A DNA stretch of 32,000 nt from Trichodesmium erythraeum IMS101. GTDB lineage: Bacteria > Cyanobacteriota > Cyanobacteriia > Cyanobacteriales > Microcoleaceae. The notes beneath the pieces were generated by a model. That model was not told where the DNA came from. It did not search any database and was given only the letters and a program-made list of their open reading frames with translations. The position numbers were made by a program, and so were the translations under genes. Numbering within the stretch: the first letter of the stretch is position 1; the number at the start of each line of letters is the position of its first letter. The DNA lies in NCBI RefSeq assembly GCF_000014265.1, contig NC_008312.1:3720001-3752000 (forward strand), given 5' to 3'. Below are positions 3,582-27,164 of the stretch, one piece after another.

Positions 3582-3639
3582 ACCTTTTCTATTAATACAG
3601 CGCTTTTCAAATTTATCAACTACATCACCATAACCAAAA

Positions 3640-3790
3640 CTTTGTAGGGAGGTTCCATGGAAGGTTCCTATTTGCAACGTCTCTGCTGTGGTCTAGGGTG
3701 ATGAAAACTGCTGTAATTATTCTTGGAGGCTAATTTTTTATTCTAACTGATGGCTGATAGCTGACAGCTGAATGCTTACAGTCACTATAC
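3640..3790. repeat. Dispersed cyanobacterial repeat patch: palindrome TTCCATGGAA plus five STRR-like heptamers
   Basis: GTAGGGAGGTTCCATGG (palindrome core 3653-3662) recurs as CGTAGGTTCCATGG at 31052-31064. Five tandem heptamers CTGATGG CTGATAG CTGACAG CTGAATG CTTACAG lie at 3747-3781. Confidence 0.6.
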
Positions 3791-4001
3791 CTATTTCCTT
3801 CCACCAAAGTATAAGTATTCACCCAGATATGATATCAGTTGAGAGCATCAATAAATTTAAACTTGACATCAGACTATCATAGATTTCAATGTAATACGTT
3901 GTAGTATTATATGGTAGCAAAAAAAAATCGACCCGCTAAAGCGGGACAATAAAGGAAAAAGAAAAACAGGGCAAAGGGCAAAAGGGGAAAAGAGAAAAGG
4001 G

Positions 4002-5813
4002 TTAGAGAGTTCTCCCGCCATCGCAGACAAGACGAAAACCAGTAATGTAGTTGTGGACGTCGCGCCTAATAAAGTAGTAGCGAACCGCAGAACGGCAAAT
4101 ATAAGGATAGCTGATCCAAGAACCGCCCCGCAGCGGTGATAGACTTTTATTTCCATTTAGCCAAACACTGCCATCTGTAGGCGCACCATCATAGTTATCA
4201 TGCCATTCATCAGCACACCATTCCCAGACATTCCCGTGCATATCGTACAAGCCAAAACTATTGGGTGGAAAATTTCCCACATCTGTTGTTTCTTTTCTAT
4301 ATTTTCCTTTTGGCCCATTACCGTAAGTGTACCTGCCATCATAGTTGACTAACTCAGACGTTATGGTTTCTCCAAAATAAAATGGTGTTGTTGTTCCTCC
4401 ACGACAGGCATATTCCCATTCTGCTTCGCTCGGCAGTCTATAGTCTCTTCCCGTTTTCTTAGAGAGCTTTTGACAGAACTCTGTAGCGTCATTCCAACTT
4501 ACCCTTTCTACAGGGCGATTTTTTCCTTCAAAACGAGAAGGGTTGTTTCCCATAACTGCTTGCCATTGTGCTTGAGTGACTGGATACTTGCCCATGAAAA
4601 ATTCTGGCACATTTACATAATGTTGCGGACCTTCATCATCATCTCTTTCTGCTTCAGTCTCTGGAGACCCCATGAGGAATATACCTCCGGGAATTTTTAC
4701 CATTTCTAGAGAAACTCCATTACCGATGTTTTCTGTCATTACTTCTGCTTTACCTTCACTGCGACTTATTATGTTTCCTCTACTGTTAACTCTCACAGTG
4801 GTAAACGTCTGAATGGGAATTTTTGGTCGTGGTGGAGGAGTTTGTTTTTGTCTAACTTGTTCAGTTTCCCTAGAATAATTAGCGATCGCTGTTGATAAAT
4901 CATTATTCATATCAAGAAATTCTAGGGATAAATTGTTTTCCCTAGCATATTTAATAATCACTTTTTTAGCTTTTTCTACATTCTCTATCCCCGATGACTG
5001 AGCTATTTTGAGAATCTTATCAAATTGTTTGGGATAAAGAATCTTATCAGAAGAAATTTGAGCAAGACTTTGAATATTGTCCTTGATAGTTTTATATTCC
5101 TCAAGTTCTAAAGAATTATCATATAGTCTACGAGTTTTTTCTGTGGCAAAAATATTTTTACTTTCTATTGCCAGACCTCTTTGAGCTTCCGTTTTCGTAT
5201 CTTTTCGCCCACTTTTTTGTGATTTTTCGTATTTTTCCTGAGCTCTATCAATAAAAATATTGTTCTTTGCCGTGGTTTTTGATAGTTCTAAAAATTCGTA
5301 AATATTTTGGTAACCTAATGTCTCTAAATACCCTTTAATTCTTTTTAATTGTGTTTCATCTAAAGTTTCTAAATTTGGTTCATCGACATCTTGATTAATT
5401 TGAATATTGTTTCTGTTGATTTCATTTCTGATAAATGATTCTGGAACAAAATTTTTATATTTTCTAACTAACCCTTGAATTTCCGATTCGTAAATAAATC
5501 CTTTACTAGAAATTAAGTCTATTTCTGTTATTAATTTTTCTTGTTCTACTTTGCCTGGAGTCTCTTGCTGGCTAGTCTTTGCCATTTCTGCTTCTTTTGC
5601 TCTTTGACCAGGGTCCCCCATAATCTTTTTAATTTCAGGAATTAGAGCTAAATATTCTCGATACTGCGCCCCTTTTCTTCCTGGTAATTTGCTTTTTGCC
5701 GACCACTCTGCACGTTTTTGTATTAGAATTTCCTCGAATTTTTCATCAGACCAAGATTCTTTTGGATCTATTCCCAAAAGTATGAAATAATTTTCCCGCT
5801 GTTTTTCTGGCAT
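4002..5813 (-). CDS. Multidomain protein with C-terminal formylglycine-generating-enzyme (FGE/SUMF1, PF03781-type) domain and N-terminal degenerate J-like modules
   Basis: 603-aa ORF. C-terminal signatures are FMGKYPVTQAQW, RLPSEAEWEYACRGG, YDMHGNVWEWCAD and RGGSW. The N-terminus has NYFILLGIDPKES... and NIYEFLELSKTTA... J-like helices without HPD. Confidence 0.85.
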   Translation of the reverse strand: MPEKQRENYFILLGIDPKESWSDEKFEEILIQKRAEWSAKSKLPGRKGAQYREYLALIPEIKKIMGDPGQRAKEAEMAKTSQQETPGKVEQEKLITEIDLISSKGFIYESEIQGLVRKYKNFVPESFIRNEINRNNIQINQDVDEPNLETLDETQLKRIKGYLETLGYQNIYEFLELSKTTAKNNIFIDRAQEKYEKSQKSGRKDTKTEAQRGLAIESKNIFATEKTRRLYDNSLELEEYKTIKDNIQSLAQISSDKILYPKQFDKILKIAQSSGIENVEKAKKVIIKYARENNLSLEFLDMNNDLSTAIANYSRETEQVRQKQTPPPRPKIPIQTFTTVRVNSRGNIISRSEGKAEVMTENIGNGVSLEMVKIPGGIFLMGSPETEAERDDDEGPQHYVNVPEFFMGKYPVTQAQWQAVMGNNPSRFEGKNRPVERVSWNDATEFCQKLSKKTGRDYRLPSEAEWEYACRGGTTTPFYFGETITSELVNYDGRYTYGNGPKGKYRKETTDVGNFPPNSFGLYDMHGNVWEWCADEWHDNYDGAPTDGSVWLNGNKSLSPLRGGSWISYPYICRSAVRYYFIRRDVHNYITGFRLVCDGGRTL

Positions 5814-6841
5814 AATAGTCTCAAAACTTTACTCTGCAAATATTCGACTAAATATGATTTTAACCTTATTTTGATTTTTCCTAAAGTCCGGTTAAATTAA
5901 AAGTATTTAATTCTTAATGCTATGTTATAATTTTAAGGCTTACGGGAAAAAAATTAATCTCGTAACAAAAAGTTACACATAGTCATCCTAACAGTCCCTA
6001 CTCTGCTAGAGAGTACAAAGCTCTTCTAAAAAAGGATTTGCTAAACTGAGCTGAAAGTTTTATGGGAAAAGCCTTACAGCATCTATAGTTTTCCATGGAG
6101 AGTTGAGAAAACCTGGAATTGGTTATCCTAAAAATAACAGGACTTACGCACCAAGCGCTATATGAGGTTATCCTCCACCAGGAAGAGAATTATTAGTAAA
6201 AGTTTGTGTACCAACACCCTCAGTCGTAGGAAGACTTCCGACAACTCCTGCTAAAAAATTACCAACTTTATTAAAAAAGCCCTGATTTTTCAAAGGAAAC
6301 TGGAGAAACTGAACCTGTTGTTCTGTCGCCAAAACACTATAGTTTAGACAATGATTAATTCTCATATTAGGGTCGGGCGGACCTTCTCGAGAGCCAATAA
6401 TATATTAATTGCTCATAGCTTTTCCTCAATTAATTGATATTTAACAACTGGCAATTTAATCACCATCACCGTTACCGCCAACCTCTCCACCATCTCCAAT
6501 ATCAGCAATATCACCTATATCCGCAAGTTGTTCGTACTCATATATTTCAGTATTTAAATCATCATTTTGTTTGATTCCACTCTACATATTTTCATTATTA
6601 TCAACTAGGTAAGATATATTATTAAAGTCATTATTTTATCTGCTTTCATTCCAGACACCTTTATTCTCAATATTATCTAGTTTATTATCCGGTTGTGTTC
6701 GGTTTGGCGACTGAGAATTAATAGCAGGGTTTTTCAGGCAACTATTACCATTGTTAGGGATCCAAATTTGGTGATATTTATCCAAAAGCATTCCACCGTA
6801 TGCTTGAACATCATATTCTTTATGAATCCTTAGATTCTATC

Positions 6842-7086
6842 AGAAACTCAAACCTAAATAATGCCAATTTTTATCTAGCTTTTTTCAAACGAGCTAATAA
6901 GTAAAAGTACAAATTTACAAAAAGCAAATTTAGTAGGAGGATATCAGATAGAAAGCTAATTTTAGTAAGGCAAATTTATCTGGTGCTAAAACTTATGGAT
7001 GGAAAAGAAAAAATGCAAACTTTATTGATACTATAATGTATGAGGAAAAAAAATTTATTGACACTGAAACATTCATCAATAATTAA
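6842..7086 (+). pseudogene. Pentapeptide-repeat protein remnant (3' end, frameshifted)
   Basis: Three frames give SNLNNANFYLAFFKRANK*, TNLQKANLVGGYQIES* and ANFSKANLSGAKTYGWKRKNANFIDTIMYEEKKFIDTETFINN* (TAA 7084-7086). These show the A(N/D)LxxAxL pentapeptide periodicity. Confidence 0.4.
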
Positions 7087-7915: not shown

Positions 7916-8328
7916 ACTAAGAATACTAAAATCTCACATAATGGTACTTAGTTATGCTCAAGGTAAAAAATCATTTTTTTTCGTGGCTATTTTTTGAGGC
8001 TGAAATCTACAGACATAATTGATATAAACTATACATAATCGAAATCTACTCAGCATCTACTAAATAACCCAACAAATATTTCATATATTCTTGACTTATG
8101 CAACTTATTTAATAGATGTCAGTAAAATTAAAGTTTTCAGCTTAATTAATCAATTAATCAAGTTAATTTATCGCTTATAAAATTTGATGTATATGTAATT
8201 TTTAGTTAGCAAACTTATCATATTTTAGTGATTCAAAAACCACCTAAAAACAAAGATAATTATTGATGAATAAATACATAATTAAACTTGAATAAATGTC
8301 TTAAGAGAGTATATAATATTTGGAAATC

Positions 8329-11300
8329 ATGAACGATCAAAATAAAACTAAAGAGGAACTAATTCAGGAACTAGTAAAACTTCGTAAAACTGTTAGTAAA
8401 TTAGAAGAAGCTAATTCAAATTCCCAGTTAATAGGACAAAAATTAAATAATGTAATTGAAGATCGCAATGCAGCACTAAAAGAATCAAACGATCAGCTTA
8501 TCCAAGAAATTGTTAAACGCCAACAAGCCGTAAAAGCTTTGAGAGTAGCAAAAGAAAAGTTACTAACTGTTTTGGCAGCAGTACCAGGTACAGTATCTTG
8601 GATCAAGTCAGATTTACAGTATATAGAAGTTAATCAGCGTTTAGCTGATATGTTTGATCTACCCAAAGAAGAATTTCCGGGAAAACATATTGGTTTTTTA
8701 GAGACAAGTTCTGAGTTTAATGACTTTATCAAAGAGTTTTTTGAGAGTTCGCAGTTAGAAACAACCCGTGAAATTGGAGTAGTAGTTGATGGGAAACCTA
8801 GAAACTATTTGGTAGTTGCACAAAAGTATCATAAAAATCAAGCTGCCTTTATAGTAGGTATAGATATTACTGAAAAAAAACAAGCAGAATACAAATTAAG
8901 AAAAGCAAAAGAACAGTTAGAAACAGTTTTAGCAGCAGTACCAGGTACCGTATCTTGGATTAGTTCAGACTTACGCTATATTGAAGTTAATCAGCAGTTA
9001 GCTAATATTTTTAGTATGCCCAGAGAAGAATTTCCGGGGAAATATATTGGTTTTTTAGGGATCAGTTCTGAATTTAATGATTTTGTTGAGGGGTTTTTTG
9101 CTAGTTCTGATCTCGAAACAATAGGTGAGGTTGTATCACAAATTGATGGGGAAGATCGAAACTATTTAATTATTGCACAAAAGTACAATCAAAACAAGGC
9201 TGCTTTTGTCATAGGTATAGATATTACTGAACGCAAACAAGCAGAAAAAAATCTGTTAGTTAGTAAAGAAAAACTAGAAACAGTATTAGAAGCTGTTCCA
9301 GGAATGGTTTCATGGATTAATTCAGATTTAACCTATATTGAAGTCAATCAAAAATTAGCTGATACATTTAACCTAGCACCAGACGAATTTGTTGGCAAAA
9401 ATATTGCTTTTATAAACAAAAATTATAAATTTAATTCTTTAATTCAAGATTTTTTTGCTAGTCCTGAGCAGGAAATAACTGCTGAGATTACTTCAGAATA
9501 CAATAATATATCCCAAAATTATTTAATAGTTGCTCGCAAATATAATCATAATCAAGCAGCATTTGTAGTTGGAATTAATATTACCGAACACAGACAAGTA
9601 GAGTTAGAGCTTGGGGTAGCTCAAGAACAGTTCAAAACTATTTTAGAAGCAGTGCCAGGAATCGTATCTTGGATCAGCTCAGATTTACGGTACTTAGGAG
9701 TTAATAAACACTTAGCAAAAACTTACAATTTACCCCAAGAGGCTTTTGTTGGTCAAAATATTGGCTTTCTCAAATCTAGTGAAAAATTTAGTACATTTAT
9801 GCAGCAATTCTTTGCTAGTTCAGCTCAGGATGCCTATGAAGAAATATCTGCTTGGGTTAATGGTACTCTCCGAAGTTATTTAATTGTCTGCCACAAATAT
9901 GCTCAAGGGGCAGCTGCTTTTGCTGTAGGCATTGATATTAGTGACCGCAAGCATGCAGAGGTAGCACTACAAGAAGCTGAAGAAAAATATCGTACTATCT
10001 TTGAAAATGCCATTGAAGGAATTTTCCAAGCATCTCCAGAAGGTCACTTGATCAGTGCTAACCCGGCATTAGCTCGAATTTATGGTTATGGTTCTCCTGA
10101 AGAAGTGATTGCTGATCTGGTTTGTTTGCCACATCAACTTTACAGTCATTATAAATACCAGGAGCAATTTATCCAAAAATTAAAGGAGCATGGTCGCTTA
10201 GTTAATTATGAATCACAAATTTATCGTCCAGATGGCAGTTTAATTTGGATTTCCGAAAATACTAAAGCTGTATACGATCAAGATGGCAAATTAATTCGTT
10301 ATGACGGAACTGTCGAGGATATTACAGAACGAAAACAAGCACAAGAAGCTCTACAAATAGCTAATCAGCAGTTAGAAGCCAAGGTTGAGGAACGCACTCA
10401 AGCTTTAGTGGAATCAAATCGTTTGCTAATGATAGAAATTTCAGATCGTCGTCGTGCTGAGATTGCCTTAAGAGAATCTGAAGCAGAATTACGGGTGTTA
10501 TTTGAGGCCATGACTGATATAGTTACTGTCTTTGATTCCCAAGGTAGATATGTCAAAATTTTCTCTACTAATTCTAAGGTATTATATACTCCTACCAATG
10601 AATTGATTGGCAAAAGTGTTGATGAGGTTTTGCCCCCTCAGCAAGCTAGCTTATTTATGATTAATATTCAACGGGTGCTGAATACCCAGGAAACTGTGAA
10701 TGTAGAATATAGTCTATTTCTATCTGATCATCAACAGGATAATGATATACATAGTCTATCATGCGAAATGTCTAATTACCAATCTTACCAATCCCATCCC
10801 GATCATTATTCTTCTATTTCTCAACCTAATAAAGCTTGGTTTACTGCTAACGTTTCACCATTACCAGATAACTGTGTAATTTGGGTAGCGCATAATATTA
10901 CAGAACGCAAACAGGTGCTAGATGCTTTGCGAACAGCAGAGGAAAAATACCGCACCATCTTTGAAAATGCCGCAGAAGGAATATTTCAAACTACTGTTGA
11001 TGGACGCTTTATTAGTGCAAATCCAGCTTTAGTTAAAATGTGTGGGTTTTCATCAGAAACAGAGTTAAAAGAGAGGGTAACTGATATTGCTAAACAACTA
11101 TATGTTGACTTAAAGCGTCGCTCTGAGTTTGTTGCTCAAGTTGAAAAATATGGCTCTATATCAAATTTTGAATCAAAGATTTATCGTTGCGATCATAGTG
11201 TGATGTGGATTTCTGAAAATGTTCGTGTAGTTCGTAATTCTGAGGGAGAAGTACTTTATTATGAAGGTACTGTTCAAGATATCACAAAACGTAAATATAT

Positions 11301-11952
11301 AGAAACTGAACTGCGCTTAGAACAACAAAAATCTGACAGTTTATTATTGAATATTTTGCCTGCTCAGATAGCTGGAAAATTAAAACAAAATCAACGTGCG
11401 ATTGCAAAACGGTTTCAAAATGTGACTATTTTGTTTGCTGATATTGTGGATTTTACTAGCTTTTCGGCTCGGATATCTCCCACTGAACTAGTGCATAGGC
11501 TGAATCAAGTTTTCTCAGAGTTTGATAAATTAACTGAACAACACAATTTGGAAAAAATTAAAACAATTGGAGACTCTTATATGGTGGCTAGTGGTTTACC
11601 CAAAGCCAAAGAAGATCATGCCGAGGCGATCGCTAAAATGGCAATAGATATGCAAAAGGTAATTAAGAAATTTTTAAATGATCGCGGAGAACCTTTTCAA
11701 ATTCGCATTGGTATTAACACCGGGCCTGTAGTAGCAGGAGTAATTGGTATTAAAAAGTTTGTTTATGACTTGTGGGGTGATACAGTAAATGTAGCATCTC
11801 GGATGGAATCAAGTGGAACACCTGGTAAAATTCAAGTTACCGAAGCTACTTATCAACTTTTACAAGATAAGTTTTCATTAGAGTCACGAGGGTATATTCC
11901 GGTTAAAGGTAGAGGAGAAATGATGACTTATTGGCTTATAGATCAGGGATAA
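8329..11952 (+). CDS. Multi-PAS sensor class III adenylate/guanylate cyclase
   Basis: The ORF is open from TTG 8320; ATG 8329 is the likelier start. It has an N-terminal coiled coil, four 119-aa PAS-like repeats (VLAAVPGTVSWI...), two PAS/PAC modules (EEKYRTIFENA..EGIFQ) plus a third, less typical PAS-like module (LRVLFEAMTDIVTVFD) between them, and a C-terminal CYCc domain (VTILFADIVDFTS, KTIGDSYMVASGLP, IRIGINTGPVVAGVIG, DLWGDTVNVASRMES). Confidence 0.95.
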   Translation: MNDQNKTKEELIQELVKLRKTVSKLEEANSNSQLIGQKLNNVIEDRNAALKESNDQLIQEIVKRQQAVKALRVAKEKLLTVLAAVPGTVSWIKSDLQYIEVNQRLADMFDLPKEEFPGKHIGFLETSSEFNDFIKEFFESSQLETTREIGVVVDGKPRNYLVVAQKYHKNQAAFIVGIDITEKKQAEYKLRKAKEQLETVLAAVPGTVSWISSDLRYIEVNQQLANIFSMPREEFPGKYIGFLGISSEFNDFVEGFFASSDLETIGEVVSQIDGEDRNYLIIAQKYNQNKAAFVIGIDITERKQAEKNLLVSKEKLETVLEAVPGMVSWINSDLTYIEVNQKLADTFNLAPDEFVGKNIAFINKNYKFNSLIQDFFASPEQEITAEITSEYNNISQNYLIVARKYNHNQAAFVVGINITEHRQVELELGVAQEQFKTILEAVPGIVSWISSDLRYLGVNKHLAKTYNLPQEAFVGQNIGFLKSSEKFSTFMQQFFASSAQDAYEEISAWVNGTLRSYLIVCHKYAQGAAAFAVGIDISDRKHAEVALQEAEEKYRTIFENAIEGIFQASPEGHLISANPALARIYGYGSPEEVIADLVCLPHQLYSHYKYQEQFIQKLKEHGRLVNYESQIYRPDGSLIWISENTKAVYDQDGKLIRYDGTVEDITERKQAQEALQIANQQLEAKVEERTQALVESNRLLMIEISDRRRAEIALRESEAELRVLFEAMTDIVTVFDSQGRYVKIFSTNSKVLYTPTNELIGKSVDEVLPPQQASLFMINIQRVLNTQETVNVEYSLFLSDHQQDNDIHSLSCEMSNYQSYQSHPDHYSSISQPNKAWFTANVSPLPDNCVIWVAHNITERKQVLDALRTAEEKYRTIFENAAEGIFQTTVDGRFISANPALVKMCGFSSETELKERVTDIAKQLYVDLKRRSEFVAQVEKYGSISNFESKIYRCDHSVMWISENVRVVRNSEGEVLYYEGTVQDITKRKYIETELRLEQQKSDSLLLNILPAQIAGKLKQNQRAIAKRFQNVTILFADIVDFTSFSARISPTELVHRLNQVFSEFDKLTEQHNLEKIKTIGDSYMVASGLPKAKEDHAEAIAKMAIDMQKVIKKFLNDRGEPFQIRIGINTGPVVAGVIGIKKFVYDLWGDTVNVASRMESSGTPGKIQVTEATYQLLQDKFSLESRGYIPVKGRGEMMTYWLIDQG
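8551..9978 (+). repeat. Four tandem 357-bp coding repeats inside the cyclase gene
   Basis: Repeat units start at 8551, 8908, 9265 and 9622, an exact 357-nt period. Units 1 and 2 look roughly 80% identical at DNA level by eye. Confidence 0.85.
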
Positions 11953-12457: not shown

Positions 12458-13939
12458 ATGATTACAGGTGAACTAAAATCAAAAGTAGATAAGTTATGGT
12501 CGACGTTCTGGAGCAATGGTATTAGTAACCCATTGTCAGTTATTGAACAAATATCTTACCTATTATTTATTAAACAACTTGATCAGCAGGAAGCAGTTAA
12601 GGAGAAAAAAGCGCGACGGCTAAAAAAGGTAAAAGAAAAACTAATATTTTCAGAAGCATCACAAAGCTGTCGATGGTCTCACTTCAAGGAATTAGCAACA
12701 GATAAGATGTTTGAGGCTGTAAGGGATGAGGCTTTTCCTTTTATCAAAACTTTGGGGGGAACTTTAGAAAATAATGCCTACTCTCGACACATGAAGGATG
12801 CTGTATTTATGATAGGCAGCCCGGCATTATTGGCAAATGTGGTGCAACAAATAGATAGTTTACCCCTCGATGACCGAGATACTAAGGGGGACCTCTATGA
12901 ATATATGCTTTCTAAGCTGAATACTGCGGGGCAAAATGGACAGTTTAGGACACCGCGCCACATTATTAAGATGATAGTGGACTTGATGACACCCCAACCT
13001 AATGATGTCGTTTGTGACCCTGCTTTTGGTACGGCTGGGTTTTTGGTCGCCGTAGCAGAACATTTACAACAACTCAAGGATGAGAATGGTTCCTTAGTTT
13101 TGAATGCACCAGGAAACAAAGAGCATTTTTATCAGCATATGTTTCACGGTTTTGACTTTGATGCCACAATGTTGCGTATTGGTAGTATGAATTTAATGCA
13201 GCATGGTATTGAAAATGCTCAAATTGAAGCGAGGGATGCTTTATCGGAAGACCACGCGGGGGTTGAGGAAATGTTTACTTTGGTTTTGGCTAACCCACCG
13301 TTTAAGGGGTCGATACAAAAGTCAAGTATTGCTAAAGATTTAACTAAAATTGTTAATACTACTAAAACAGAGTTGTTATTTTTGGCTTTATTTTTAAGGT
13401 TATTAAAAACGGGGGGTCGGGCGGCGGTTATTGTGCCTGATGGGGTTTTATTTGGTTCTTCTAAAGCCCATAAAGATGTTCGTAAGATGTTAGTTGAAGA
13501 GCATAAGTTAGATGGAGTTATTTCTATGCCATCGGGGGTTTTTAAACCTTATGCGGGGGTATCAACAGCGATTTTAATGTTTACAAAAACGGGGGCGGGT
13601 GGTACTGATTTTGTTTGGTTTTGTGATATGCAGGCGGATGGTTTTTCGTTGGATGATAAACGGCAACCTGTAGAAGAAAATGACATTTCTAATATTACTA
13701 AAAGTTGGCAAAAACGGAATCCTAAAAAAGATAAGGACCGGAATAGTAAGACGTTTTTTATACCGAAGGATGAGATAAAAGATAATGGTTATGATCTTTC
13801 TATTAATAGATATAAAGAGGTGGCATACGAGGAGATAGAATATGAGCATCCTTTAGTAATTTTAGGTAAGTTACGAGAATTAGAGGATGAAATTAATCAA
13901 GATTTGGATGAGTTGGGGCAGTTATTAAATGGAGATTAA
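12458..13939 (+). CDS. hsdM: Type I restriction-modification system, N6-adenine DNA methyltransferase subunit M
   Basis: 493 aa with an HsdM_N-like start (LWSTFWSNGISNPLSVIEQISYLLFIK), motif I VCDPAFGTAGFL and motif IV LANPPFKG. Confidence 0.95.
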   Translation: MITGELKSKVDKLWSTFWSNGISNPLSVIEQISYLLFIKQLDQQEAVKEKKARRLKKVKEKLIFSEASQSCRWSHFKELATDKMFEAVRDEAFPFIKTLGGTLENNAYSRHMKDAVFMIGSPALLANVVQQIDSLPLDDRDTKGDLYEYMLSKLNTAGQNGQFRTPRHIIKMIVDLMTPQPNDVVCDPAFGTAGFLVAVAEHLQQLKDENGSLVLNAPGNKEHFYQHMFHGFDFDATMLRIGSMNLMQHGIENAQIEARDALSEDHAGVEEMFTLVLANPPFKGSIQKSSIAKDLTKIVNTTKTELLFLALFLRLLKTGGRAAVIVPDGVLFGSSKAHKDVRKMLVEEHKLDGVISMPSGVFKPYAGVSTAILMFTKTGAGGTDFVWFCDMQADGFSLDDKRQPVEENDISNITKSWQKRNPKKDKDRNSKTFFIPKDEIKDNGYDLSINRYKEVAYEEIEYEHPLVILGKLRELEDEINQDLDELGQLLNGD

Positions 13940-14432
13940 TCTGCAAAAGGAGGAGTTTAGTTATGCTTATATTTGAGGGGTTGCTACTGTGGCGGGTTGT
14001 GTTTTTCAAGGAACTACTCCCCCTTTAGATGGGTTGGGAATTGATTTAATTTTAACTTGATTAAAATCACGACTACCAGAAAATTTTCCGATTCTTTATG
14101 TGCTGGTAAAATGTAATTCTAGGGGGGTTATTAATGATGATATTGTCCCCTTTCCTTTGTCTGTGAAAAACTATAATGATTTGAGGGTAATTAATCGTTA
14201 TCCGCGGATAATTTTTATTGTTGTGGTTGTGCCGGAAAAGGTGGAGGAATGGCTACTAAAATCTGAATCATCTCTTTGTTTTCTAGGTTGTGGTTATTGG
14301 TTATCTTTGGCGGGTGCTGATGTGACGAAAAATCAGGATAATATTACTGTTTCAATTCGGAGAAAAAATATGTTTAATCCTCAAGTTTTAGAGGGAATTA
14401 TGGAGAAGGTTTGGCAAGGGGATATGTTATGA
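13929..14432 (+). pseudogene. DUF4365-like (PD-(D/E)XK fold) gene with two in-frame TGA codons
   Basis: ATG 13929 overlaps the hsdM stop by 11 nt. The single frame runs to TGA 14430-14432, with internal TGA at 13974-13976 and 14058-14060 and no frameshift. Conceptual product: MEINLQKEEFSYAYI*GVATVAGCVFQGTTPPLDGLGIDLILT*LKSRLPENFPILYVLVKCNS...IIFIVVVVPEKVEEWLL...GYWLSLAG. Confidence 0.55.
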
Positions 14433-14965
14433 ATTTTATTGTTAAAGATATTAATTTATTTAATAATATTCAGCGGGAAGTTGTGGCTAATTATTTGGAA
14501 TAAGGAGGTTGGAAGCAGCAAAGACTGATTGAAAATGAGGGGATAATTTGGGGTAAGAATGGGGTAGATTTTTCTAATATGACTTTGGTTTTACTATTGA
14601 ATCAAGAGGTTGCAGATTTTCTTTTAAGTATTAATTTATTGGTGGAAAATTTGGCTAATTTTGAGGGGATAACTGAGTTGGAAATTTTGCTAAAGTTAAT
14701 GACTAATTTGCCTAATGTGGAGATACAGGGGTTAATTGTGGGGATAAGGTCACCAGAAGGTGATATACTTAGTGGAGATGTTGATTTTATGGGGGTGGTT
14801 ATGAATAAGTTGGAGAGGATAAAAATGGTATTATTTGATAGGGATTATGTTGTGGGAATTAGGGCTGATCAGGAGCGTTTGCCTGTGTTATTTGGGGGGG
14901 ATTTGGTGAAGGGACATAATGGTTTTGTTTTGAAAAATGTTTGTAATTTTGAGGTGGATAAGTAG
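14429..14965 (+). pseudogene. Unknown-family gene with one in-frame TAA, start overlapping the upstream stop (ATGA)
   Basis: ATG 14429-14431 overlaps TGA 14430-14432. A 179-codon frame runs to TAG 14963-14965 with an internal TAA at 14501-14503. Product: MNFIVKDINLFNNIQREVVANYLE*GGWKQQRLIENEGIIWGKNG... continuing into track ORF 14579-14965. Confidence 0.5.
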
Positions 14966-15022
14966 GATGGGGAAGGAGTTAGGAATTGAGTTTTTTTTTG
15001 TTGAGTTGAAGGGATTAATTGG

Positions 15023-16231
15023 ATGAAATGGCAGCGTGTTTTTGTTGAAGATGTAGCTAAAATTGTAACTAAGGGAACTACTCCTACTTCTATAGGTTTT
15101 AGCTTTTCTAAAGAAGGTATCCCTTTTCTACGAGTCAATAATATCCAAGATGGTAAAATCAATCTTGGTGATGTTTTATTTATTGACTCAAAAACGGATC
15201 AAGCTCTTGCGCGTTCTCGAATTTTAAAAAAAGATGTAATAATTTCAATTGCTGGTACAATTGGAAAAACCGCAGTTATTCCTACTAATGCTCCAGCAAT
15301 GAACTGCAACCAGGCACTTGCAATAATAAGGCTTCACAATAATGTAGACCCCTACTATTTTAACCATTGGCTGAATACAGGAGATGCGTTTCGACAAATT
15401 ACAGGTTCAAAAGTGACAGCAACTATTTCTAACCTAAGTCTTGGTTGTATCAAAAAGCTCAAAATCCCCCTCCCCCCAATAGAAGAACAGCGCCGAATAG
15501 CTGCAATACTCGACCAAGCTGATGCTATCAGACGAAAGAGACAACAAGCGATCGCTCTAACAGATGAATTATTGCGTTCTACATTCCTGGAGATGTTCGG
15601 CGACCCTGTTATTAATCCGAAGGGGTGGGAGGTAAAAAAATTAGAGGAAGTTGCATTAAAACGCAAGGGGGCTATAAAATGCGGACCTTTTGGTAGCCAA
15701 CTACTTATAAGCGAGTTTGTCAAAGATGGTATTCCAGTATACGGAATAGACAATGTTCAAAAAAATGAGTTTGTTTGGGCCAAACCCAAGTATATTACTA
15801 CTGAAAAGTACGAGCAATTAAAAAGCTTTTCTATCCAGGATGAGGACGTTCTGATTTCAAGAACTGGAACAGTTGGAAGAACTTGTGTCGCACCACCTGA
15901 TATCCCTAGAAGTATCCTTGGACCTAACTTGCTGAAAGTTTCCTTAAATACTAACAAAATGCTTCCTAAATATTTGTCCTATGCTTTAAATCACTCTAAT
16001 CCCCTGATTGAAGAGATAAAAAGAATGTCACCAGGTGCTACAGTTGCAGTTTTTAACACAACAAACCTTAAAGCTTTGAGGTTAACAATTCCCCATATAA
16101 ACCTGCAATCCCAGTTTGTCAACTTTACTGAAAATGTTGAATTGACAAAGCAAAAAGAGTCTAACTACCTCACAGAATCCAACAACCTATTTAACTCCCT
16201 GTTACAACGCGCATTCAAAGGCCAACTATAA
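15023..16231 (+). CDS. hsdS: Type I restriction-modification system specificity subunit S
   Basis: 402 aa with two target-recognition halves separated by the central conserved helix PLPPIEEQRRIAAILDQADAIRRKRQQAIALTDELLRSTFLEMFGDP, and a C-terminal conserved helix ending LLQRAFKGQL. Confidence 0.93.
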   Translation: MKWQRVFVEDVAKIVTKGTTPTSIGFSFSKEGIPFLRVNNIQDGKINLGDVLFIDSKTDQALARSRILKKDVIISIAGTIGKTAVIPTNAPAMNCNQALAIIRLHNNVDPYYFNHWLNTGDAFRQITGSKVTATISNLSLGCIKKLKIPLPPIEEQRRIAAILDQADAIRRKRQQAIALTDELLRSTFLEMFGDPVINPKGWEVKKLEEVALKRKGAIKCGPFGSQLLISEFVKDGIPVYGIDNVQKNEFVWAKPKYITTEKYEQLKSFSIQDEDVLISRTGTVGRTCVAPPDIPRSILGPNLLKVSLNTNKMLPKYLSYALNHSNPLIEEIKRMSPGATVAVFNTTNLKALRLTIPHINLQSQFVNFTENVELTKQKESNYLTESNNLFNSLLQRAFKGQL

Positions 16232-16247: not shown

Positions 16248-19200
16248 ATGACCTCAAACTTTGACTTTCTCAAACCCCACTACCCCAAACTACACCAAAC
16301 CGCCACCCAGGCAGAAACATTAATCAACAACGCCCCCCGGGCCAGTTGCTTCTACACCCGCTACACCTTAGAACAAGCGGTTATCTGGCTCTACGAAAAT
16401 AATCCTTACCTAGAGCTCCCCAAGACCTACAACTTAGGGGCATTAATTCACGAGCAAACCTTTAAAGACAACCTCCAAAACAACCTTTTCCCCAAACTCC
16501 GCATCATTCACAAAATAGGCAACGCAGCAGCCCACGACCCCAAACCCATCACCTCCAAAGATGCTCGTTACCTCATCCAAGAACTCTATCACTTCCTCTA
16601 CTGGCTCACCCGCTACTACAGCCCCGACGGCAAAAACCTCCCTAACCTCAAATTCAACCCCGACCTCATTCCCACAAGCACAACTAAGTCAGACCTCACC
16701 CTCGATAAACTCCAACAACTCGAAACCCAACTTTCTACCGCCCAAGAAATGCAACGCATCGCCGAACAAAAAGAAAAACAAACCACCGCAGAACTAGAAA
16801 CAGCAAAAGCCGAACTCGCCCAACTCAAACAACAAAACCAGACCAAAAGCGATCGCCACGACTACAACGAAGCCGATACCCGCACCTACTTACTTGATAT
16901 TTTACTCAAAGAAGCTGGTTGGCCGATACATCTGCCAGAGTCTACAGAATACCAAGTCACAGGAATGCCTAACGAAACAGGAAAAGGTAAAATTGACTAT
17001 GTATTTTGGGGAGATGACGGCAACCCTTTAGCAATAGTAGAAGCAAAACGCACTCGCAAGAGTCCCCAAACAGGACAACATCAAGCCAAACTATACGCCG
17101 ACTGTCTGCAAGCAGAATTTAACCACCGCCCCGTCATTTTCTACAGCAACGGTTATGAGCATTGGATATGGGATGATTTTAACTATCCACCCCGCCCCAT
17201 TCAAGGCTTTCTCAAAAAAGACGAACTAGAGCGTTTAATATTCCGCCGGAGTCATCGTCAACCCCTCCATACCCTGGATGTCAACCCCGACATCGCCGGA
17301 CGTTGTTATCAAAAAGAAGCTATCTGTTGCATCAAAGAAATATTTGACAACAAACAGCGTAAAGCATTATTAGTCATGGCAACAGGAACAGGTAAAACTC
17401 GGACAGCCGTCAGTATTGTAGAATTATTGGAACGAGCCAACTGGGTGAAACGAGTCTTATTTTTAGCGGACCGCAACGTCCTCTTAACTCAAGCCCAAGG
17501 TGTCTTTAACAGTAACCTTAACAGTATTACCACTGCAAACCTAACCGAAAAAAAACAAGACGCAGAAAACGCCACCATTGTCTTTTCCACCTACCCCACC
17601 ATCAGCAACCGCATCAACGCAACTGATGGAGATAAACGCTTATTCAGTCCTGGATATTTTGATTTAGTTATAGTAGATGAAGCACACCGTTCCATCTATC
17701 GCAAATATCGGCAAATATTTCAATATTTCGATGCTCTACTTTTAGGTTTAACAGCTACACCCCGCAATGAAGTAGACCGGGACACTTACAGTATTTTTGA
17801 CTTAGAGCCTGGGGTTCCCACCTTTGCTTATGAATTAGACAGCGCCATCAAAGACGGTTATCTCGTTCCTCCCAGTGGTGTCGAAGTTCCCTTTAAGTTT
17901 ATGCGGGCAGGTATTAGATATTCAGAACTGCAACCAGAGGAAAAGACAGCCTATGAGGAACGGTTTGCTGATGCAGAAACTGGGGAAGTGCCGGACAAAA
18001 TTAATGCTACAGCTCTTAATACTTGGTTATTTAATATTAGTACCGTAGACCAAGCGCTACAGTTATTAATGGAGCGGGGGCTAAAAGTAGAAGGAGGCGA
18101 TCGCCTCGGTAAAACCATCATTTTTGCTCGCAACCACAAACATGCTGAGTTTATTTCTGAACGGTTTAATGCTAATTATCCCCACTACAAAGGTCAGTTT
18201 GCTCAAATTATTGATAGCCAAAGTTCCTACTCTCAAAGTTTGCTGGATGACTTTTCAAATGCAGACAAACAGCCAATTATTGCGGTGTCTGTAGATATGT
18301 TAGATACAGGGGTAGACGTGCGGGAAGTAGTTAACTTAGTATTTTTCAAACCAGTCTATTCTCGGATAAAATTCAATCAAATGATTGGACGCGGTACTCG
18401 TTTATGCCCTAACTTATTTGCTCCGGGTGATGATAAAACAGAATTTTTAGTATTCGACCTGTGCAGTAACTTCAGTTATTTTGAGCAACAGATAGACGAA
18501 AAAAATGTAAAAATTCCTGACAGTCTCACAACAAAATTAGTCAAATCACGCCTTGAACTGAGTCAATTAGTACCCACTGGCGAGTTAAAAAATAACCTCT
18601 TAGATGAGTTGCATCAATATATTAACTCAATGCCCAAAGATAACTTTTTAGTGCGCCCCCATTTGCAGCAAGTAGAAGAGTTTTCCCAGAGAGAGCGATG
18701 GAATGAGTTAGGAGAAAGCGATCAAGAAATAATAGGGGAGTCATTAGCAAGTTTACCCAATGGTTTACCAAAAGAGAGCCATTTAAATAAACGGTTTGAC
18801 CTAATATGTGTCAAATTACAGCTAGCATTGTTAAAACAGTCAACAGACTTTATCAGACTCCGGGATAATATTCGAGATATTTGCTCTCAACTCGCCCAAA
18901 AGTCTAACATTCCCATGATAGCAGCAAAACTACAAGTTATTGAAGAAGTACAAGCAGAGGAATGGTGGCGAGATATTACAGTAGAAATGGTTTCAATTTT
19001 ACAGCAAGACTTACGAGAATTAGTAAAATTTATAGATAGCCAAGAACAAAAAATTATGTATGTAAACTTTGCCGATGAAATGGGAGAAGTGCAAAATGTC
19101 AACGTTCCCACCCAAACATCAGGGTTTAGTCCTCTCCAGTATAAGAAAAAAGTAGAGGCATATATTCGGAGTAATGAGAACAATGTTGCTGTTGCTAAAT

Positions 19201-19607
19201 TAAAACGTAATATCCCCTTAACCGACGCTGACTTAACAGCATTAGAAGAAATGTTATTTAATAGTGAAGTTATAGAAGATAGGGAAATATTTGCCGAAGT
19301 TTACGGTCAAAATATTAGTTTAAAACTATTTATTAGAAAGTTAGTCGGATTAGATAGAAATGCAGCCAAAGAATTATTTAGTAAATATTTAAACAGCAAA
19401 TTTAACACCAGTCAAATTAGATTTGTTGAGAATATTATCGACTATTTAACTCAAAATGGAGTGATGTCCCCAGAATTATTATATGAGCCACCTTTTACAG
19501 ATTTACACACGGAAGGATTAGATGGTATCTTTGCAGATAAAGAGGCAGATAACATTATTGAGATATTGACAGAGATTAATGAAAGTGTTGATTATGACGT
19601 AGCTTAG
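16248..19607 (+). CDS. hsdR: Type I restriction endonuclease subunit R with N-terminal DUF4145-like domain
   Basis: 1119 aa. AAGGA lies about 10 nt upstream of ATG 16248. Domains in order: DUF4145-like LRIIHKIGNAAAHD, a coiled coil (aa ~150-200), a PD-(D/E)XK nuclease KIDYVFWGDDGNPLAIVEAKRT, and helicase motifs MATGTGKTRTA, VIVDEAHRS, LGLTATPRNE and MIGRGTR. Confidence 0.95.
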   Translation: MTSNFDFLKPHYPKLHQTATQAETLINNAPRASCFYTRYTLEQAVIWLYENNPYLELPKTYNLGALIHEQTFKDNLQNNLFPKLRIIHKIGNAAAHDPKPITSKDARYLIQELYHFLYWLTRYYSPDGKNLPNLKFNPDLIPTSTTKSDLTLDKLQQLETQLSTAQEMQRIAEQKEKQTTAELETAKAELAQLKQQNQTKSDRHDYNEADTRTYLLDILLKEAGWPIHLPESTEYQVTGMPNETGKGKIDYVFWGDDGNPLAIVEAKRTRKSPQTGQHQAKLYADCLQAEFNHRPVIFYSNGYEHWIWDDFNYPPRPIQGFLKKDELERLIFRRSHRQPLHTLDVNPDIAGRCYQKEAICCIKEIFDNKQRKALLVMATGTGKTRTAVSIVELLERANWVKRVLFLADRNVLLTQAQGVFNSNLNSITTANLTEKKQDAENATIVFSTYPTISNRINATDGDKRLFSPGYFDLVIVDEAHRSIYRKYRQIFQYFDALLLGLTATPRNEVDRDTYSIFDLEPGVPTFAYELDSAIKDGYLVPPSGVEVPFKFMRAGIRYSELQPEEKTAYEERFADAETGEVPDKINATALNTWLFNISTVDQALQLLMERGLKVEGGDRLGKTIIFARNHKHAEFISERFNANYPHYKGQFAQIIDSQSSYSQSLLDDFSNADKQPIIAVSVDMLDTGVDVREVVNLVFFKPVYSRIKFNQMIGRGTRLCPNLFAPGDDKTEFLVFDLCSNFSYFEQQIDEKNVKIPDSLTTKLVKSRLELSQLVPTGELKNNLLDELHQYINSMPKDNFLVRPHLQQVEEFSQRERWNELGESDQEIIGESLASLPNGLPKESHLNKRFDLICVKLQLALLKQSTDFIRLRDNIRDICSQLAQKSNIPMIAAKLQVIEEVQAEEWWRDITVEMVSILQQDLRELVKFIDSQEQKIMYVNFADEMGEVQNVNVPTQTSGFSPLQYKKKVEAYIRSNENNVAVAKLKRNIPLTDADLTALEEMLFNSEVIEDREIFAEVYGQNISLKLFIRKLVGLDRNAAKELFSKYLNSKFNTSQIRFVENIIDYLTQNGVMSPELLYEPPFTDLHTEGLDGIFADKEADNIIEILTEINESVDYDVA

Positions 19608-21510: not shown

Positions 21511-23316
21511 TCAATCTAATCGTAACACCGCCATAAAAGCTTCCTGTGGAACATCAACCGTACCCAAGGACTTCATCCGCTTCTTACCCTTAGCCTGTTT
21601 TTGTAATAACTTCTTCTTACGGCTAATATCCCCACCATAACACTTAGCCAAGACATCCTTCCGTAAAGCAGGAATATGCTCACTAGCAATAACCTTAGAA
21701 CCAATAGACGCTTGAATTGGTACCTTAAACTGATGACGGGGAATTAACTCCTTCAACTTTTCCGCCAAAGCCCGGCCTACCCCATAAGCCTTATCCCGAT
21801 GCACAATTATAGCCAAAGCATCCACTGGTTCAGCATTAATCATAATATCCAACTTAACCAAAGGATTCTCACGATAACCTATAAGATGATACTCCATACT
21901 AGCATAACCGCGAGACCGAGACTTCATTTGGTCGAAAAAATCCGTAACCACCTCTGCCAAAGGAATCTCATATACTAAAGTAGTTCTACCCTGAGCCAGA
22001 TACTTCATATCCTTAAATACCCCCCGTCGTGACTGACCCAGCTCCATTAACGTCCCTACATATTCCTCTGGAGTAATCATTTCCACCCGAACATAAGGCT
22101 CCTCAATTTTTTCTCGCAAATTAGGCTCCGGCAAGAAATTTGGGTTATCAACCAAAATCACCTCCTCCTTACTAGTAGTTACCTGGTAAACCACCGATGG
22201 AGAAGTAACAATCAAATCTAAACCATATTCTCGCTCCAACCTTTCCTGGACAATTTCCATGTGCAGCAGTCCTAAAAAGCCACATCGAAATCCAAAACCC
22301 ATAGCACTCGACGTTTCTGCCTCATAAGACAAAGCTGCATCATTAAGTTTAAGCTTATCCAATGCTTCTCGTAAATCTGGAAACTGGTCAGCATCAGTAG
22401 GAAATAATCCACAAAACACCATAGGGTTAGCTGACCTGTAACCTGGCAGAGGATCCTGAGCCTGTTTTTTGGCCAAAGTAATCGTATCTCCCACCCTTGC
22501 ATCTTCCACCGCCTTAATAGCCGCCGAGAAATAACCAACCTCTCCTGCATGAAGCTCCTGTACTGGTTGTTGAGTTGGAGACAAAACTCCTAGATCATCT
22601 ATCTCATATTCCTTTTTAGAAGCCATAAGTCGGACGCGATCGCCCTTAGCAATAGTCCCATCCATAACCCGGAAATATACAATTACCCCTCTATAGGAGT
22701 CATAATAACTATCAAATATCAGGGCCCGTAATTTTTCACCTATAGTATCTTGTGGTGGTGGTACTAACTGAACAATGGACTCTAAAATTTCCGGAATTCC
22801 TATTCCTTCTTTAGCAGAAGCTAAAATTGCACCCGAACAGTCTAAACCAATTATTTCCTCTATTTCCTCTTTTACCCGTTCTGGTTCTGCCCCTGGCAAA
22901 TCTATCTTATTTAAAACCGGGATAATTTCTAAATCATGCTCCAAAGCCAAATATACATTAGCTAAAGTCTGAGCCTCTACCCCTTGGGAAGCATCTACCA
23001 CCAACAAAGCACCTTCACAAGCCGCTAAAGAACGGGATACTTCATAAGAAAAATCTACATGACCAGGTGTATCAATAAGATTTAAAACATATTCTTCCCC
23101 ATCTTTAGCATGGTAATTCATTCGGGCAGCCTGGAGTTTAATTGTAATGCCACGCTCCCTTTCTAAATCCATCGTGTCTAAGAATTGCTCTTTCATTTCA
23201 CGGTCTGCCACCGTACCGGTTGCTTGTAGTAAGCGATCTGCTAAAGTTGATTTTCCGTGGTCTATATGAGCAATAATGGAAAAATTACGAATATGAGATA
23301 CAGGAACTTTTGTCAT
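21511..23316 (-). CDS. lepA: Translation elongation factor 4 (LepA/EF4)
   Basis: 601 aa with [32 protein letters not shown], and the LepA-specific C-terminus ...[28 protein letters not shown]. Confidence 0.98.
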
Positions 23317-23343
23317 ATTTTTTTTTTATAATGTGATACTTTC

Positions 23344-23470
23344 GTCGACATACCCCTCGCCCTAAGCCGTTGGGGATTCTCTCTTCACAGGGAGAGCCAA
23401 GCAGGAATATCAACCCCCACCCCGATCTCTTTACCTTCGGTGACCTTTTTTCCCGTCTGCCCGACGGTAC
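23344..23470 (-). mobile_element. Solo IS200/IS605-family right end: tnpB 3'-terminal remnant plus omega-RNA (reRNA) scaffold
   Basis: A GC-rich island in AT-rich spacer. The minus strand reads ...GGTAAAGAGATCGGGGTGGGGG...TGAAGAGAGAATCCCCAACGGCTTAGGGCGAGGGGTATGTCGAC. This parallels the right end of the tnpB element at 26925-27040 (GAGTAAATCTGGGAAGGCGGG...TGAAGTGAGAATCCCTCC...CAGGAGTATTTCAAG). One frame gives a TVGQTGKKVTEGKEIGVGVDIPAWLSL* tail, like a TnpB C-terminus. Confidence 0.55.
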
Positions 23471-24328
23471 TTTATACTCTTCACTTTAACGAAAAATTAG
23501 ATTTAAAGCCTTGCCCATCAGAAGCCGACTTTTTAATTGTTTTTTTTTAATACATATGCTATAATAACTTTTAAATAATTACTTGTAGGTTGACCATCCG
23601 AAAAAAAATGGACCTAGAAGCAAAGGTAAAACTAAAGTCAACTTTCCCCACTTGCCACATAAAAAGTAGTATAATTAGGAAAGTATGTTAAATGTAAAAT
23701 GTCAACCCACCAAAGAACCTCACCATTAATAGAATTGACATTGAATCAGATTAGCCTTGAAAAAGAGAAAAAGAAAATAACCCATCTCATCAGTTTCTTA
23801 AAATAAAATGACAAATATCTAGCCATGTATAATGGTAAATCCTTACTCAATAGACTTAAGATTTAGATATCAACTTGTACTGATTATTGAGAATTACCAC
23901 ATAAATTAAAACTAACTTAACTCTATTCTCACATTAGCATAGAAATATTAAGCTATCGCAAGAAATACCTTGTCCTCAAGCCAGACTTCGGTAAACATAA
24001 TTTACTGAGATTTTAATTATAGGCTTGACAAATAAGTAATAATGTAGTATGACTAAACATTGTTTATAAGATGCTATAATTTATAATAAAAAACTATAGT
24101 AATAGTAATTCTATATTGACATTGTCCAAAATATAGCCTTGCTACTTTTGGCAAAAAGAGAATAAGAATTAAGGTAATAGTGGGTAAGAAGTTCGGAGTT
24201 TATTTCTAGATTTTTGAATTTTCACAACCACTTGATTAGATTGTTATGTATACAGAATTATATTATTTCTGAGTAACATTGTTAAATTAGTTATTGTATA
24301 TTAATAAATCAATTTAGGATTATTTAAC

Positions 24329-24562
24329 ATGGGGATAAATGAGTCTAAAATTAATCAGCGAAAGTCAACTGAAAAAGTGGAATTATCTATACATATAGAT
24401 TCTAGGTTACTAGACCAAGTTCAGCATTTGACAAATGATCCCAGTAAAGTAATTGAAAGTGCTCTTCGTCAGTGGTTAAGAGGAGGTATTCCCGAAGATG
24501 AATTAGCTTTAACCCTTCAGAGAAACCCTCCTATCCCTCCAAGAGGTGAATGGAATGATTGA
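24329..24562 (+). CDS. Small hypothetical protein, ribbon-helix-helix-like
   Basis: 77 aa. The segment VELSIHIDSRLLDQVQHLTNDPSKVIESALRQWL has a beta-strand/helix/helix pattern reminiscent of CopG/RHH. No partner toxin ORF is nearby. Confidence 0.45.
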   Translation: MGINESKINQRKSTEKVELSIHIDSRLLDQVQHLTNDPSKVIESALRQWLRGGIPEDELALTLQRNPPIPPRGEWND

Positions 24563-27040: not shown

Positions 27041-27164
27041 ATAACTTTAGCAAGATCAAGAATTTTTATAGTATAAGATTTTGCTCTAGTGAAAATAAAT
27101 AAGTAGACCCTGCCTGAAAATGAGAGGCATTTAACCTAATTTTTCCTTGTAAGAACACAAATAA

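Follow-up and report, generated by a model that had tools for sequence, protein, structure and literature searches.

The stretch of 32,000 nt analysed here, from the Trichodesmium erythraeum IMS101 chromosome (NC_008312.1, positions 3,720,001 to 3,752,000 of the forward strand; this whole stretch is called the window, and all positions are counted from its first letter), carries a type I restriction-modification (R-M) operon with a two-gene cassette lodged between hsdM and hsdS. This cassette is likely to be a decayed copy of the conserved two-gene module PDC-M02, in which a nuclease gene is followed by a partner gene: with the in-frame stops masked, both products match the corresponding PADLOC profiles, intact orthologues with 90-98% identity to the window genes exist elsewhere, and the two frames in the window are interrupted by three nonsense codons. 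The features of the locus are as follows:

12458..13939, + strand: hsdM, type I R-M methylase, 493 aa, intact, stop TAA at 13937-13939, presumably Tery_2418
13929..14432, + strand: pseudogene of a DUF4365/DREN-type PD-(D/E)XK nuclease (PDC-M02A), 167 codons plus TGA at 14430-14432
13974..13976, + strand: first nonsense codon, TGA, nuclease codon 16, ancestral CGA (Arg), C>T
14058..14060, + strand: second nonsense codon, TGA, nuclease codon 44, ancestral GGA (Gly), G>T
14103..14105, + strand: nuclease codon 59, CTG (Leu), ancestral CAG (Gln), A>T at 14104
14429..14965, + strand: partner pseudogene, putative short form of PDC-M02B, 178 codons plus TAG at 14963-14965
14501..14503, + strand: third nonsense codon, TAA, partner codon 25, ancestral GAA (Glu), G>T
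14966..15022, + strand: spacer from the partner stop to the hsdS start, 57 nt, C-free, inside the C-free run 14916-15031
15023..16231, + strand: hsdS, specificity subunit, 402 aa, intact, with Methylase_S (Pfam, E=1.3e-29) in two stretches
16248..19607, + strand: hsdR, restriction subunit, 1119 aa, intact, with ResIII, Helicase_C, HSDR_N, EcoEI_R_C and DUF4145 (Pfam)

The nuclease ATG at 13929 overlaps the hsdM stop by 11 nt, its frame runs on without a frameshift, and the partner start overlaps the nuclease stop in the sequence ATGA (14429-14432). The original prediction, which was made from the letters of this stretch, had described two overlap-coupled genes here, and all coordinates, overlaps and in-frame stops that it gave for both frames were found to be exact. 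The frames are not chance, because the stop-masked first product matches DUF4365 and both products have intact orthologues of the same length (96-98% identity).

The first gene is that of a DUF4365 (DREN-type) PD-(D/E)XK nuclease, as the original prediction had proposed. Its masked product matches Pfam DUF4365 (PF14280) with E=5.5e-16 and 59.3 bits (cut-off 24.3) over profile positions 1-138 of 139, and PADLOC PDC-M02A with E=2.7e-39, residues 2-164 aligning to profile positions 4-164 of 167. Orthologues with intact frames include P0001 (96% identity) and P0003 (80%; L and P numbers denote homologous loci and proteins). For P0003 the AlphaFold2 (AF2) model has a predicted local distance difference test score (pLDDT) of 85, and a Foldseek search of the Protein Data Bank (PDB) placed the DREN-APAZ chains of SPARDA systems on top (9vx6, 9qcc and 9jt2, probability 1.0), with Hjc resolvases next. 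SPARDA systems have DUF4365 as their DREN nuclease domain, and its catalytic residues are D41/Q60/K62 in NbaSPARDA, with Q60 coordinating Mg; in TmuRE these are Q62/K64, and mutation of Q62 abolishes activity. By motif position, D39/Q59/K61 of the window family would correspond to these residues: D34 and D39 are invariant in 40 homologues, Gln59 is kept in at least 90% of them, and D39/Q59/K61 as a set are invariant or near-invariant. P0003 keeps all three, and the window nuclease has D39 and K61 together with Leu at position 59, a replacement common to the window, P0001 and P0002; with the two TGA codons added, the window gene has neither the full catalytic set nor an intact frame.

With regard to the second gene, the masked partner matches PADLOC PDC-M02B (E=6.3e-22) in an N-terminal stretch, with residues 1-92 on profile positions 1-91, and in a C-terminal stretch, with residues ~96-177 on positions ~296-380. 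In a profile comparison, residues 94-160 fall on residues 289-354 of the 377-aa partner from Achromobacter. Both alignments suggest that the Trichodesmium partner is a short form of PDC-M02B without the central ~200 residues (~180 vs ~380 aa), and an intact orthologue of this form, P0072, is 98% identical to it. The short form prevails in the cyanobacterial and metagenome loci collected, as 48 of the 56 intact pairs described below have partners of 175-198 aa and the other 8/56 have partners of 363-385 aa. Naming the partner beyond PDC-M02B was tried with Pfam, NCBIfam, PDB sequences, Foldseek and profile comparison, which returned only weak hints, towards HicB antitoxins for the fold of the N-terminal domain (probability 0.57-0.72) and towards SUKH-3 for the partner.

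A PADLOC-DB scan of both window products and their orthologues gave PDC-M02 models only, with intact orthologues reaching 1e-52 (PDC-M02A) and 1e-34 (PDC-M02B). PDC-M02 is listed as a 'phage defence candidate' in PADLOC-DB v2 (Payne, Hughes, Fineran & Jackson 2024, bioRxiv 10.1101/2024.01.29.577857); in the supplement to that preprint it is cassette CAS_00021, with 894 RefSeq cassettes, and it was predicted from recurrent embedding in type I R-M, BREX or DISARM loci. The module had been put forward as uncharacterised in the original prediction; it had, however, already been catalogued on the same embedding logic, and the window locus is a degraded, short-partner member of PDC-M02.

Recurrence of the pair was followed in two scans, one seeded with the partner (one genome per species, 18 loci) and one seeded with the nuclease (metagenomes, 80 loci). 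The partner-seeded loci come from Okeania, Hormoscilla, a Trichodesmium metagenome-assembled genome (MAG), a Spirulina MAG and other cyanobacterial MAGs. Among the nuclease-seeded loci, 56 have both genes intact, and in all of these the partner starts 3 nt before the nuclease end; nuclease and partner are adjacent, in this order and on the same strand, in the window and in 56/56 intact pairs. Overall, more than 60 loci show the 4-nt ATGA overlap, and most of them do not belong to hsd operons. The coupling of the two genes to each other is therefore general, as had been expected, but their linkage to hsd genes, expected likewise, is not: within the Trichodesmium clade, hsdM or a remnant of it lies directly upstream in the window, L001-L003, L035, L036 and L048, and elsewhere there are weak hsd-like matches at two distant loci, L110 (hsdM-like and hsdR-like, one on each side) and L090 (hsdM-like upstream). 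A general hsd linkage was rejected on these grounds, as the window hsd proteins match nothing beyond the Trichodesmium-clade loci and the weak matches in L090 and L110. Other neighbours of the pair include IS66, UPF0175, oxidoreductase, glycosidase, caspase, kinase, PIN and HNH genes. Two loci have unusual architectures: in L090 (4001-5032, JAESFT010000381.1) nuclease and short partner are naturally fused in frame into a single open reading frame (ORF) of 343 aa, and in L101 (493-4709, JADMIO010823515.1) the gene for a DUF4365 nuclease overlaps that for a 1240-aa protein, which starts with the PDC-M02B N-terminal domain (~90 residues) and continues with a PLD nuclease domain and a SNF2/DEAD helicase. 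In L101 the same adaptor domain is thus part of a larger architecture of another kind.

The three nonsense codons are genuine, because they are identical in independent assemblies and the truncated proteins recur in strains and field contigs. GCA_018457135.1 and two Logan read-set assemblies match positions 13200-15199 with 100% identity, and three more do so over 1.1-1.5 kb. The residual ORFs are annotated as genes: 14100-14432 (110 aa) is Tery_2419, a 'DUF4365 domain-containing protein', and 14579-14965 (128 aa) is Tery_2420, a 'hypothetical protein'. Both are on record in strains IMS101 and GBRTRLIN201 and in many field contigs, and the 110-aa ORF additionally in strain 21-75 and in Trichodesmium sp. 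ALOHA_ZT_67.

The stop-codon changes were polarised using L001 and L004 as outgroups. Position 13974 is C in L002, L001 and L004 and T in the window and L003; position 14058 is G in the former three and T in the latter two; and position 14501 is G in L003 and L001, so that this stop is confined to the window lineage. All three stops had been described as one C-to-T transition away from CGA, CGA and CAA, which is right for 13974, but 14058 and 14501 are G>T changes of ancestral GGA and GAA codons. The order of events was most likely replacement of Gln59 by Leu, then the nuclease stops at Arg16 and Gly44, and last the partner stop at Glu25; the nuclease broke before the partner, because L003 has both nuclease stops yet an intact partner. 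The ratio of non-synonymous to synonymous substitution rates (dN/dS) is 0.12-0.24 among intact copies, indicating purifying selection on these orthologues, and 0.42-0.59 for the window clade versus L001. The window copy is a pseudogene pair, and its inactivation, already proposed in the original prediction, agrees with stops that are identical in six assemblies and phylogenetically nested and with truncated ORFs in several strains. Trichodesmium genomes are pseudogene-rich, and a dead cassette fits this. In T. erythraeum, the function of the module appears to have been lost while hsdMSR stayed intact.

Loss of the nuclease ahead of the partner is also seen outside Trichodesmium erythraeum. Among L004-L017 (Okeania, Hormoscilla and tar-biofilm MAGs) many loci have a fragmented or deleted nuclease next to an intact 'orphan' partner, and several genomes have more than one copy of the pair, e.g. 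two each in Okeania KiyG1, Okeania SIO2B3 and MAG08. In the partner-seeded scan a full-length partner accompanies a broken or absent nuclease in seven loci (L005, L007, L009, L011, L012, L013 and L016), the same nuclease state is found in L015, where the partner runs off the contig end, and the nuclease is intact in only L008 and L010; L009 and L010 are one and the same Hormoscilla locus, without and with the nuclease, respectively. The reverse state, an intact nuclease with a damaged partner, was found in the nuclease-seeded scan only in L038 and perhaps L052, a comparison that is weakened by the unlike taxa of the two scans, since the partner-seeded loci come from the pseudogene-rich genera Okeania and Hormoscilla.

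This decay pattern, the L090 fusion and the L101 architecture are the reasons for which we read the nuclease as the costly or toxic part of the intact module and the N-terminal domain of the partner as an adaptor. The DREN domain of SPARDA is monomeric and inactive on its own and is switched on when tetramerisation is induced. By analogy, the nuclease of the intact module would be a toxic, non-specific effector that stays inert until the partner assembles or releases it; the N-terminal domain of the partner would bind the nuclease, and its variable C-terminal part may sense infection or restrain the nuclease, resulting in protection of an abortive-infection or toxin-antitoxin-like kind as a backup to the R-M system. 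Activation or restraint by the partner would be the most economical model, and to the mechanism as a whole, a toxic nuclease gated by its partner and backing up R-M, we tentatively assign a little less than an even chance.

Several points weigh against the defence reading and against parts of this mechanism. PDC-M02 stands among 145 predicted candidates and not among the experimentally confirmed systems in the parts of the preprint consulted (bioRxiv 10.1101/2024.01.29.577857), and in the searched literature, as far as it was accessible, the name occurs in no main text and only in the supplement of Payne et al.; for these reasons its defence function is a prediction. Most copies lie outside hsd operons, so that the pair may or may not cooperate functionally with the R-M system. 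Neither Pfam nor NCBIfam gave a match for the partner and its orthologues, the PDB yielded no sequence relative, and Foldseek found no significant PDB match for the partner fold; the AF2 model of the partner is of moderate quality (pLDDT 64), with only residues ~10-90 confident and a poor C-terminal half, and a role of the partner as sensor or inhibitor is accordingly put forward only as something it may do. For the nuclease, the equivalence of D39/Q59/K61 with the SPARDA residues follows from motif position and family membership and not from residue-level structural superposition.

An ancestral pair that was a selfish toxin-antitoxin (addiction) module, with its place in the hsd operon incidental or serving to stabilise the locus, would explain part of the same observations. 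The pair is a small operon of two overlapping genes in which loss strikes the nuclease first and partners persist as orphans, and the weak resemblance of the partner N-domain to HicB antitoxins points the same way, as do neighbours such as IS66, UPF0175, PIN and HNH genes, the varied contexts and the multiple, often decayed copies in each Okeania genome. Set against this, the family was detected by Payne et al. through recurrent embedding in R-M, BREX and DISARM loci, the joining of the adaptor domain to PLD and SNF2 helicase domains in L101 is an architecture typical of defence, and DREN nucleases are known immune effectors. We consider a purely selfish module unlikely. Many abortive-infection systems are themselves toxin-antitoxin-like, so that the anti-phage and toxin-antitoxin readings are compatible.

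Returning to the window copy as a dead PDC-M02 pair, this would be wrong if the cassette were still functional, either through read-through or recoding that yields full-length proteins or through truncated ORFs (Tery_2419 and Tery_2420) acting alone. The frames are otherwise unbroken and free of frameshifts, both truncated ORFs bear gene annotations and turn up again in many field contigs, and the DNA is ~98-99% identical to contigs without one or more of the stops (L002 and L003). Against function speak the ordinary Arg, Gly and Glu codons at the stop positions in sister lineages, the normal reading of the other window genes examined in the standard code, and the start of the 110-aa ORF at codon 58, so that it comes without the N-terminal helix, D34 and D39. 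Read-through, on which the original prediction had thought the cassette might depend, is unlikely because the catalytic Gln59 is already Leu and dN/dS is raised in the clade, to two to three times that of intact copies; a functional cassette is on the whole very improbable.

Equally little can be said for the view that the pair are accessory subunits of this particular type I R-M enzyme, such as restriction regulators or an extra nuclease, and not an independent module. The operon itself is sound: the window HsdM is an exact match of ABG51635 (T. erythraeum IMS101) with HsdM_N (3.3e-17) and N6_Mtase (6.1e-66) domains in Pfam, and the hsdM, hsdS and hsdR frames are all unbroken, each with its characteristic Pfam domains, so that the original description stands: a type I R-M operon, intact in all other respects, in which an accessory module of defence type is nested. 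The 11-nt overlap couples the pair to hsdM; a terminator scan found no terminator-like site on the + strand between hsdM and hsdS, and promoter-like matches that would separate the cassette from hsdM or hsdS are at chance level only. Moreover, the 3' third of hsdM and the pair are conserved as a single block across Trichodesmium lineages. Yet the pair is intact without hsd genes at most loci (Hormoscilla, the tar-biofilm MAG, Nostoc, Coleofasciculus, Achromobacter and all but two of the 80 metagenome loci), and the Trichodesmium clade itself shows reciprocal states, with an intact pair next to a mere hsdM remnant in L001, L035 and L036 and an intact hsdM next to a dead nuclease in the window and L003; the window hsdMSR genes are intact even though the pair is dead. 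We regard subunits of the R-M enzyme as a scarcely probable origin of the pair.

The 3' third of hsdM travels together with the cassette in L001, L035, L036 and L048. When the window hsdM is compared with the remnant in L035 (729-1508), the last ~170 residues are 92% identical and residues 25-116 only 66%, and hsdM seems to be a mosaic with an internal recombination junction, with which a shift in composition at ~13180 agrees. At the other end, the homology between the window and L003 (99% nucleotide identity upstream) breaks off at the first hsdS codons, at 15027 (blastn; ~2323 in L003), so that the specificity gene behind this cassette differs from one T. erythraeum-like strain to another. 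In hsdR, a DUF4145 domain (Pfam E=3.6e-08) is present at the N-terminus (residues ~21-111, window 16248-16580), ahead of the HSDR_N nuclease and helicase modules.

The cassette is also the centre of a compositional anomaly, which the original prediction had correctly recognised as the most C-depleted DNA of the window:

13180..15031, + strand: C-poor, G/T-rich block comprising the hsdM 3' third, both pseudogenes and the spacer, with 3-13% C and a C fraction at third codon positions (C3) of ~0-0.05

All of the twelve 300-nt windows with the lowest C content in the 32 kb lie within 13701-15100, C is down to 3-7% across 14400-15000, and nowhere in the 32 kb is there a longer stretch without C than 14916-15031 (116 nt), followed in length by 14769-14864 (96 nt). 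C3 is 0.03 in the 3' part of hsdM (0.02-0.05 from 13178 on), 0.02 in the nuclease and 0.00 in the partner, and third positions in the block have 0.26-0.35 G (G3) and 0.43-0.48 T (T3). The composition shifts abruptly at the hsdS start, where G3 drops from ~0.35 to 0.08. A milder version is present in the native window genes lepA and DJ-1 (C3 0.07-0.08, G3 0.24-0.27). No RNA elements, tRNAs or tandem repeats were found in or near the cassette.

A burst of C>T hypermutation by cytosine deamination that both killed the cassette and depleted it of C, as the C-to-T account of the stops had implied, could appeal to the cassette being the lowest-C DNA of the window and to the C>T origin of the stop at 13974. 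It fails because two of the stops are G>T and C>T makes up only 4/57 polarised substitutions on the window-clade branch; this spectrum is led by A>G (13), A>T (12) and C>G (10), followed by G>T (5), C>T (4) and C>A (4), and G increases as much as T. L001, which is homologous to window 13398-14965 (hsdM 3' remnant plus pair) at 90% nucleotide identity, is already C-poor (C3 0.01-0.05) with both genes intact, and the few substitutions after the L003 split lack such a bias. Hypermutation is thus a highly improbable cause.

What the substitutions point to is a strand-asymmetric drift towards G and T on the coding strand, which surfaced at non-synonymous sites once selection was relaxed: changes from A or C to G or T outnumber the reverse by 39 to 5 on the window-clade branch (binomial p=1.4e-7), and no such bias was seen on the L001, L004 and deeper branches. 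Across 49 loci, G/T-rich third positions were found in the Trichodesmium, Okeania and Hormoscilla clade only. The idea that they are a family-wide trait, with rare codons limiting a toxin, was rejected, as outside that clade the pair is no richer in G and T than its neighbours. Conceivably, although we think it quite unlikely, the 1.85-kb block records a strong local strand-specific mutational pressure from A/C to G/T on the coding (non-template) strand in Trichodesmium. Synonymous sites would have been driven to a C3 of ~0 while the genes were functional, non-synonymous sites would have followed after the cassette lost its function, and a possible source would be constitutive transcription of the defence operon, with the strand asymmetry that goes with it. 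Alternatively, the block may come from selection on RNA or from recombination with a G/T-rich allele not yet seen. If the pressure were real, the pseudogene pair would be a rare neutral read-out of that mutational process in a cyanobacterium.

Further along the operon, the 5' part of hsdR (16248-17800) is on its coding strand the mirror image of the cassette block, with C3 0.3-0.67 and G3 0.00-0.12; a HIP1 site (GCGATCGC) lies within it at ~16851, and the remainder of hsdR is ordinary in composition. The operon looks like a compositional mosaic that may have arisen by recombination with foreign hsd alleles.

That the three stops are sequencing or assembly errors in intact genes has next to no probability, since nothing other than the near-identity to intact orthologues favours it, and identity of 100% to GCA_018457135.1 and to five read sets assembled independently of each other (1.1-2.0 kb), the same truncated proteins in three named strains and many metagenome contigs, and the nested pattern in which two stops are common to L003 and the third is not exclude it.

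Elsewhere in the window, the ORF 8320-11952 is a gene for a 1210-aa adenylate/guanylate cyclase with PAS domains, and the 357-nt tandem repeat inside it (8547-9467, 2.3-2.6 copies, 75-77% matches) represents duplicated PAS modules. Coding density is low across the window: 2263-3869, 5813-6976, 23316-24874, 25344-27165 and 29113-31594 contain no ORF of at least 90 aa, no tRNA and no Rfam match.

Since the window copy is non-functional, its direct biological importance is small, and the locus is of modest interest in itself. The evidence supports neither the novelty of the module nor a C>T origin of the stops nor read-through. For annotation, Tery_2419 and Tery_2420, which were deposited as ordinary genes, are likely pieces of one dead PDC-M02 cassette, so that hsdM, two pseudogenes, hsdS and hsdR would be the proper reading of the locus. 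The data also give a testable model for a defence candidate and leave a local mutational asymmetry to be explained.

Finally, we compared the cassette with known systems. With PDC-M02 it shares matches to both hidden Markov models, the order of nuclease and partner, the gene overlap and the embedding in a type I R-M operon, and it differs in being a pseudogene pair with a partner of 178 aa, of which only profile positions ~1-91 and ~300-380 are matched in the ~380-aa profiles. PrrC of the EcoprrI locus, which is cited as the classic embedded system by Payne et al. (bioRxiv 10.1101/2024.01.29.577857), is likewise an accessory nuclease-type abortive-infection gene inside an hsd operon, but there is no homology, as PADLOC returns PDC-M02 models only for the products and their orthologues; PrrC is a single-gene ABC-ATPase anticodon nuclease and the window module a two-gene one with a DNase/RNase of the PD-(D/E)XK type, folds and presumed substrates differ, and the PDC-M02 pair is found mostly outside hsd loci. 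Type II toxin-antitoxin systems such as HicAB resemble it in the small overlapping operon, in the presumed toxic gene decaying first and in the weakly HicB-like fold of the partner N-domain, whereas they are set apart by the lack of sequence-family membership, by the nuclease coming first, and by a partner that is larger than the nuclease and also exists in long and helicase-fused forms.

The resemblance to SPARDA (NbaSPARDA and TmuRE-Ago) lies in the nuclease domain family, as DUF4365 equals DREN, in the best fold matches and in the D...QxK motif, and the logic of a non-specific nuclease that is inert until activated by a partner is likely to be shared. Unlike in SPARDA, the window nuclease stands alone, with 167 aa and DUF4365 only, and without APAZ or Argonaute, its neighbours being hsdM and hsdS; a Pfam scan of the partner and its orthologues found no APAZ or Piwi domain either, and guide-dependent sensing is therefore not expected. 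The short partner, the ATGA coupling, the L090 fusion, the L101 variant and the nuclease-first decay add comparative evidence to a candidate family that had so far been predicted, and together they point to a toxic DREN nuclease that may be run through an adaptor domain, like SPARDA without the Argonaute, as a model that can be put to the test.

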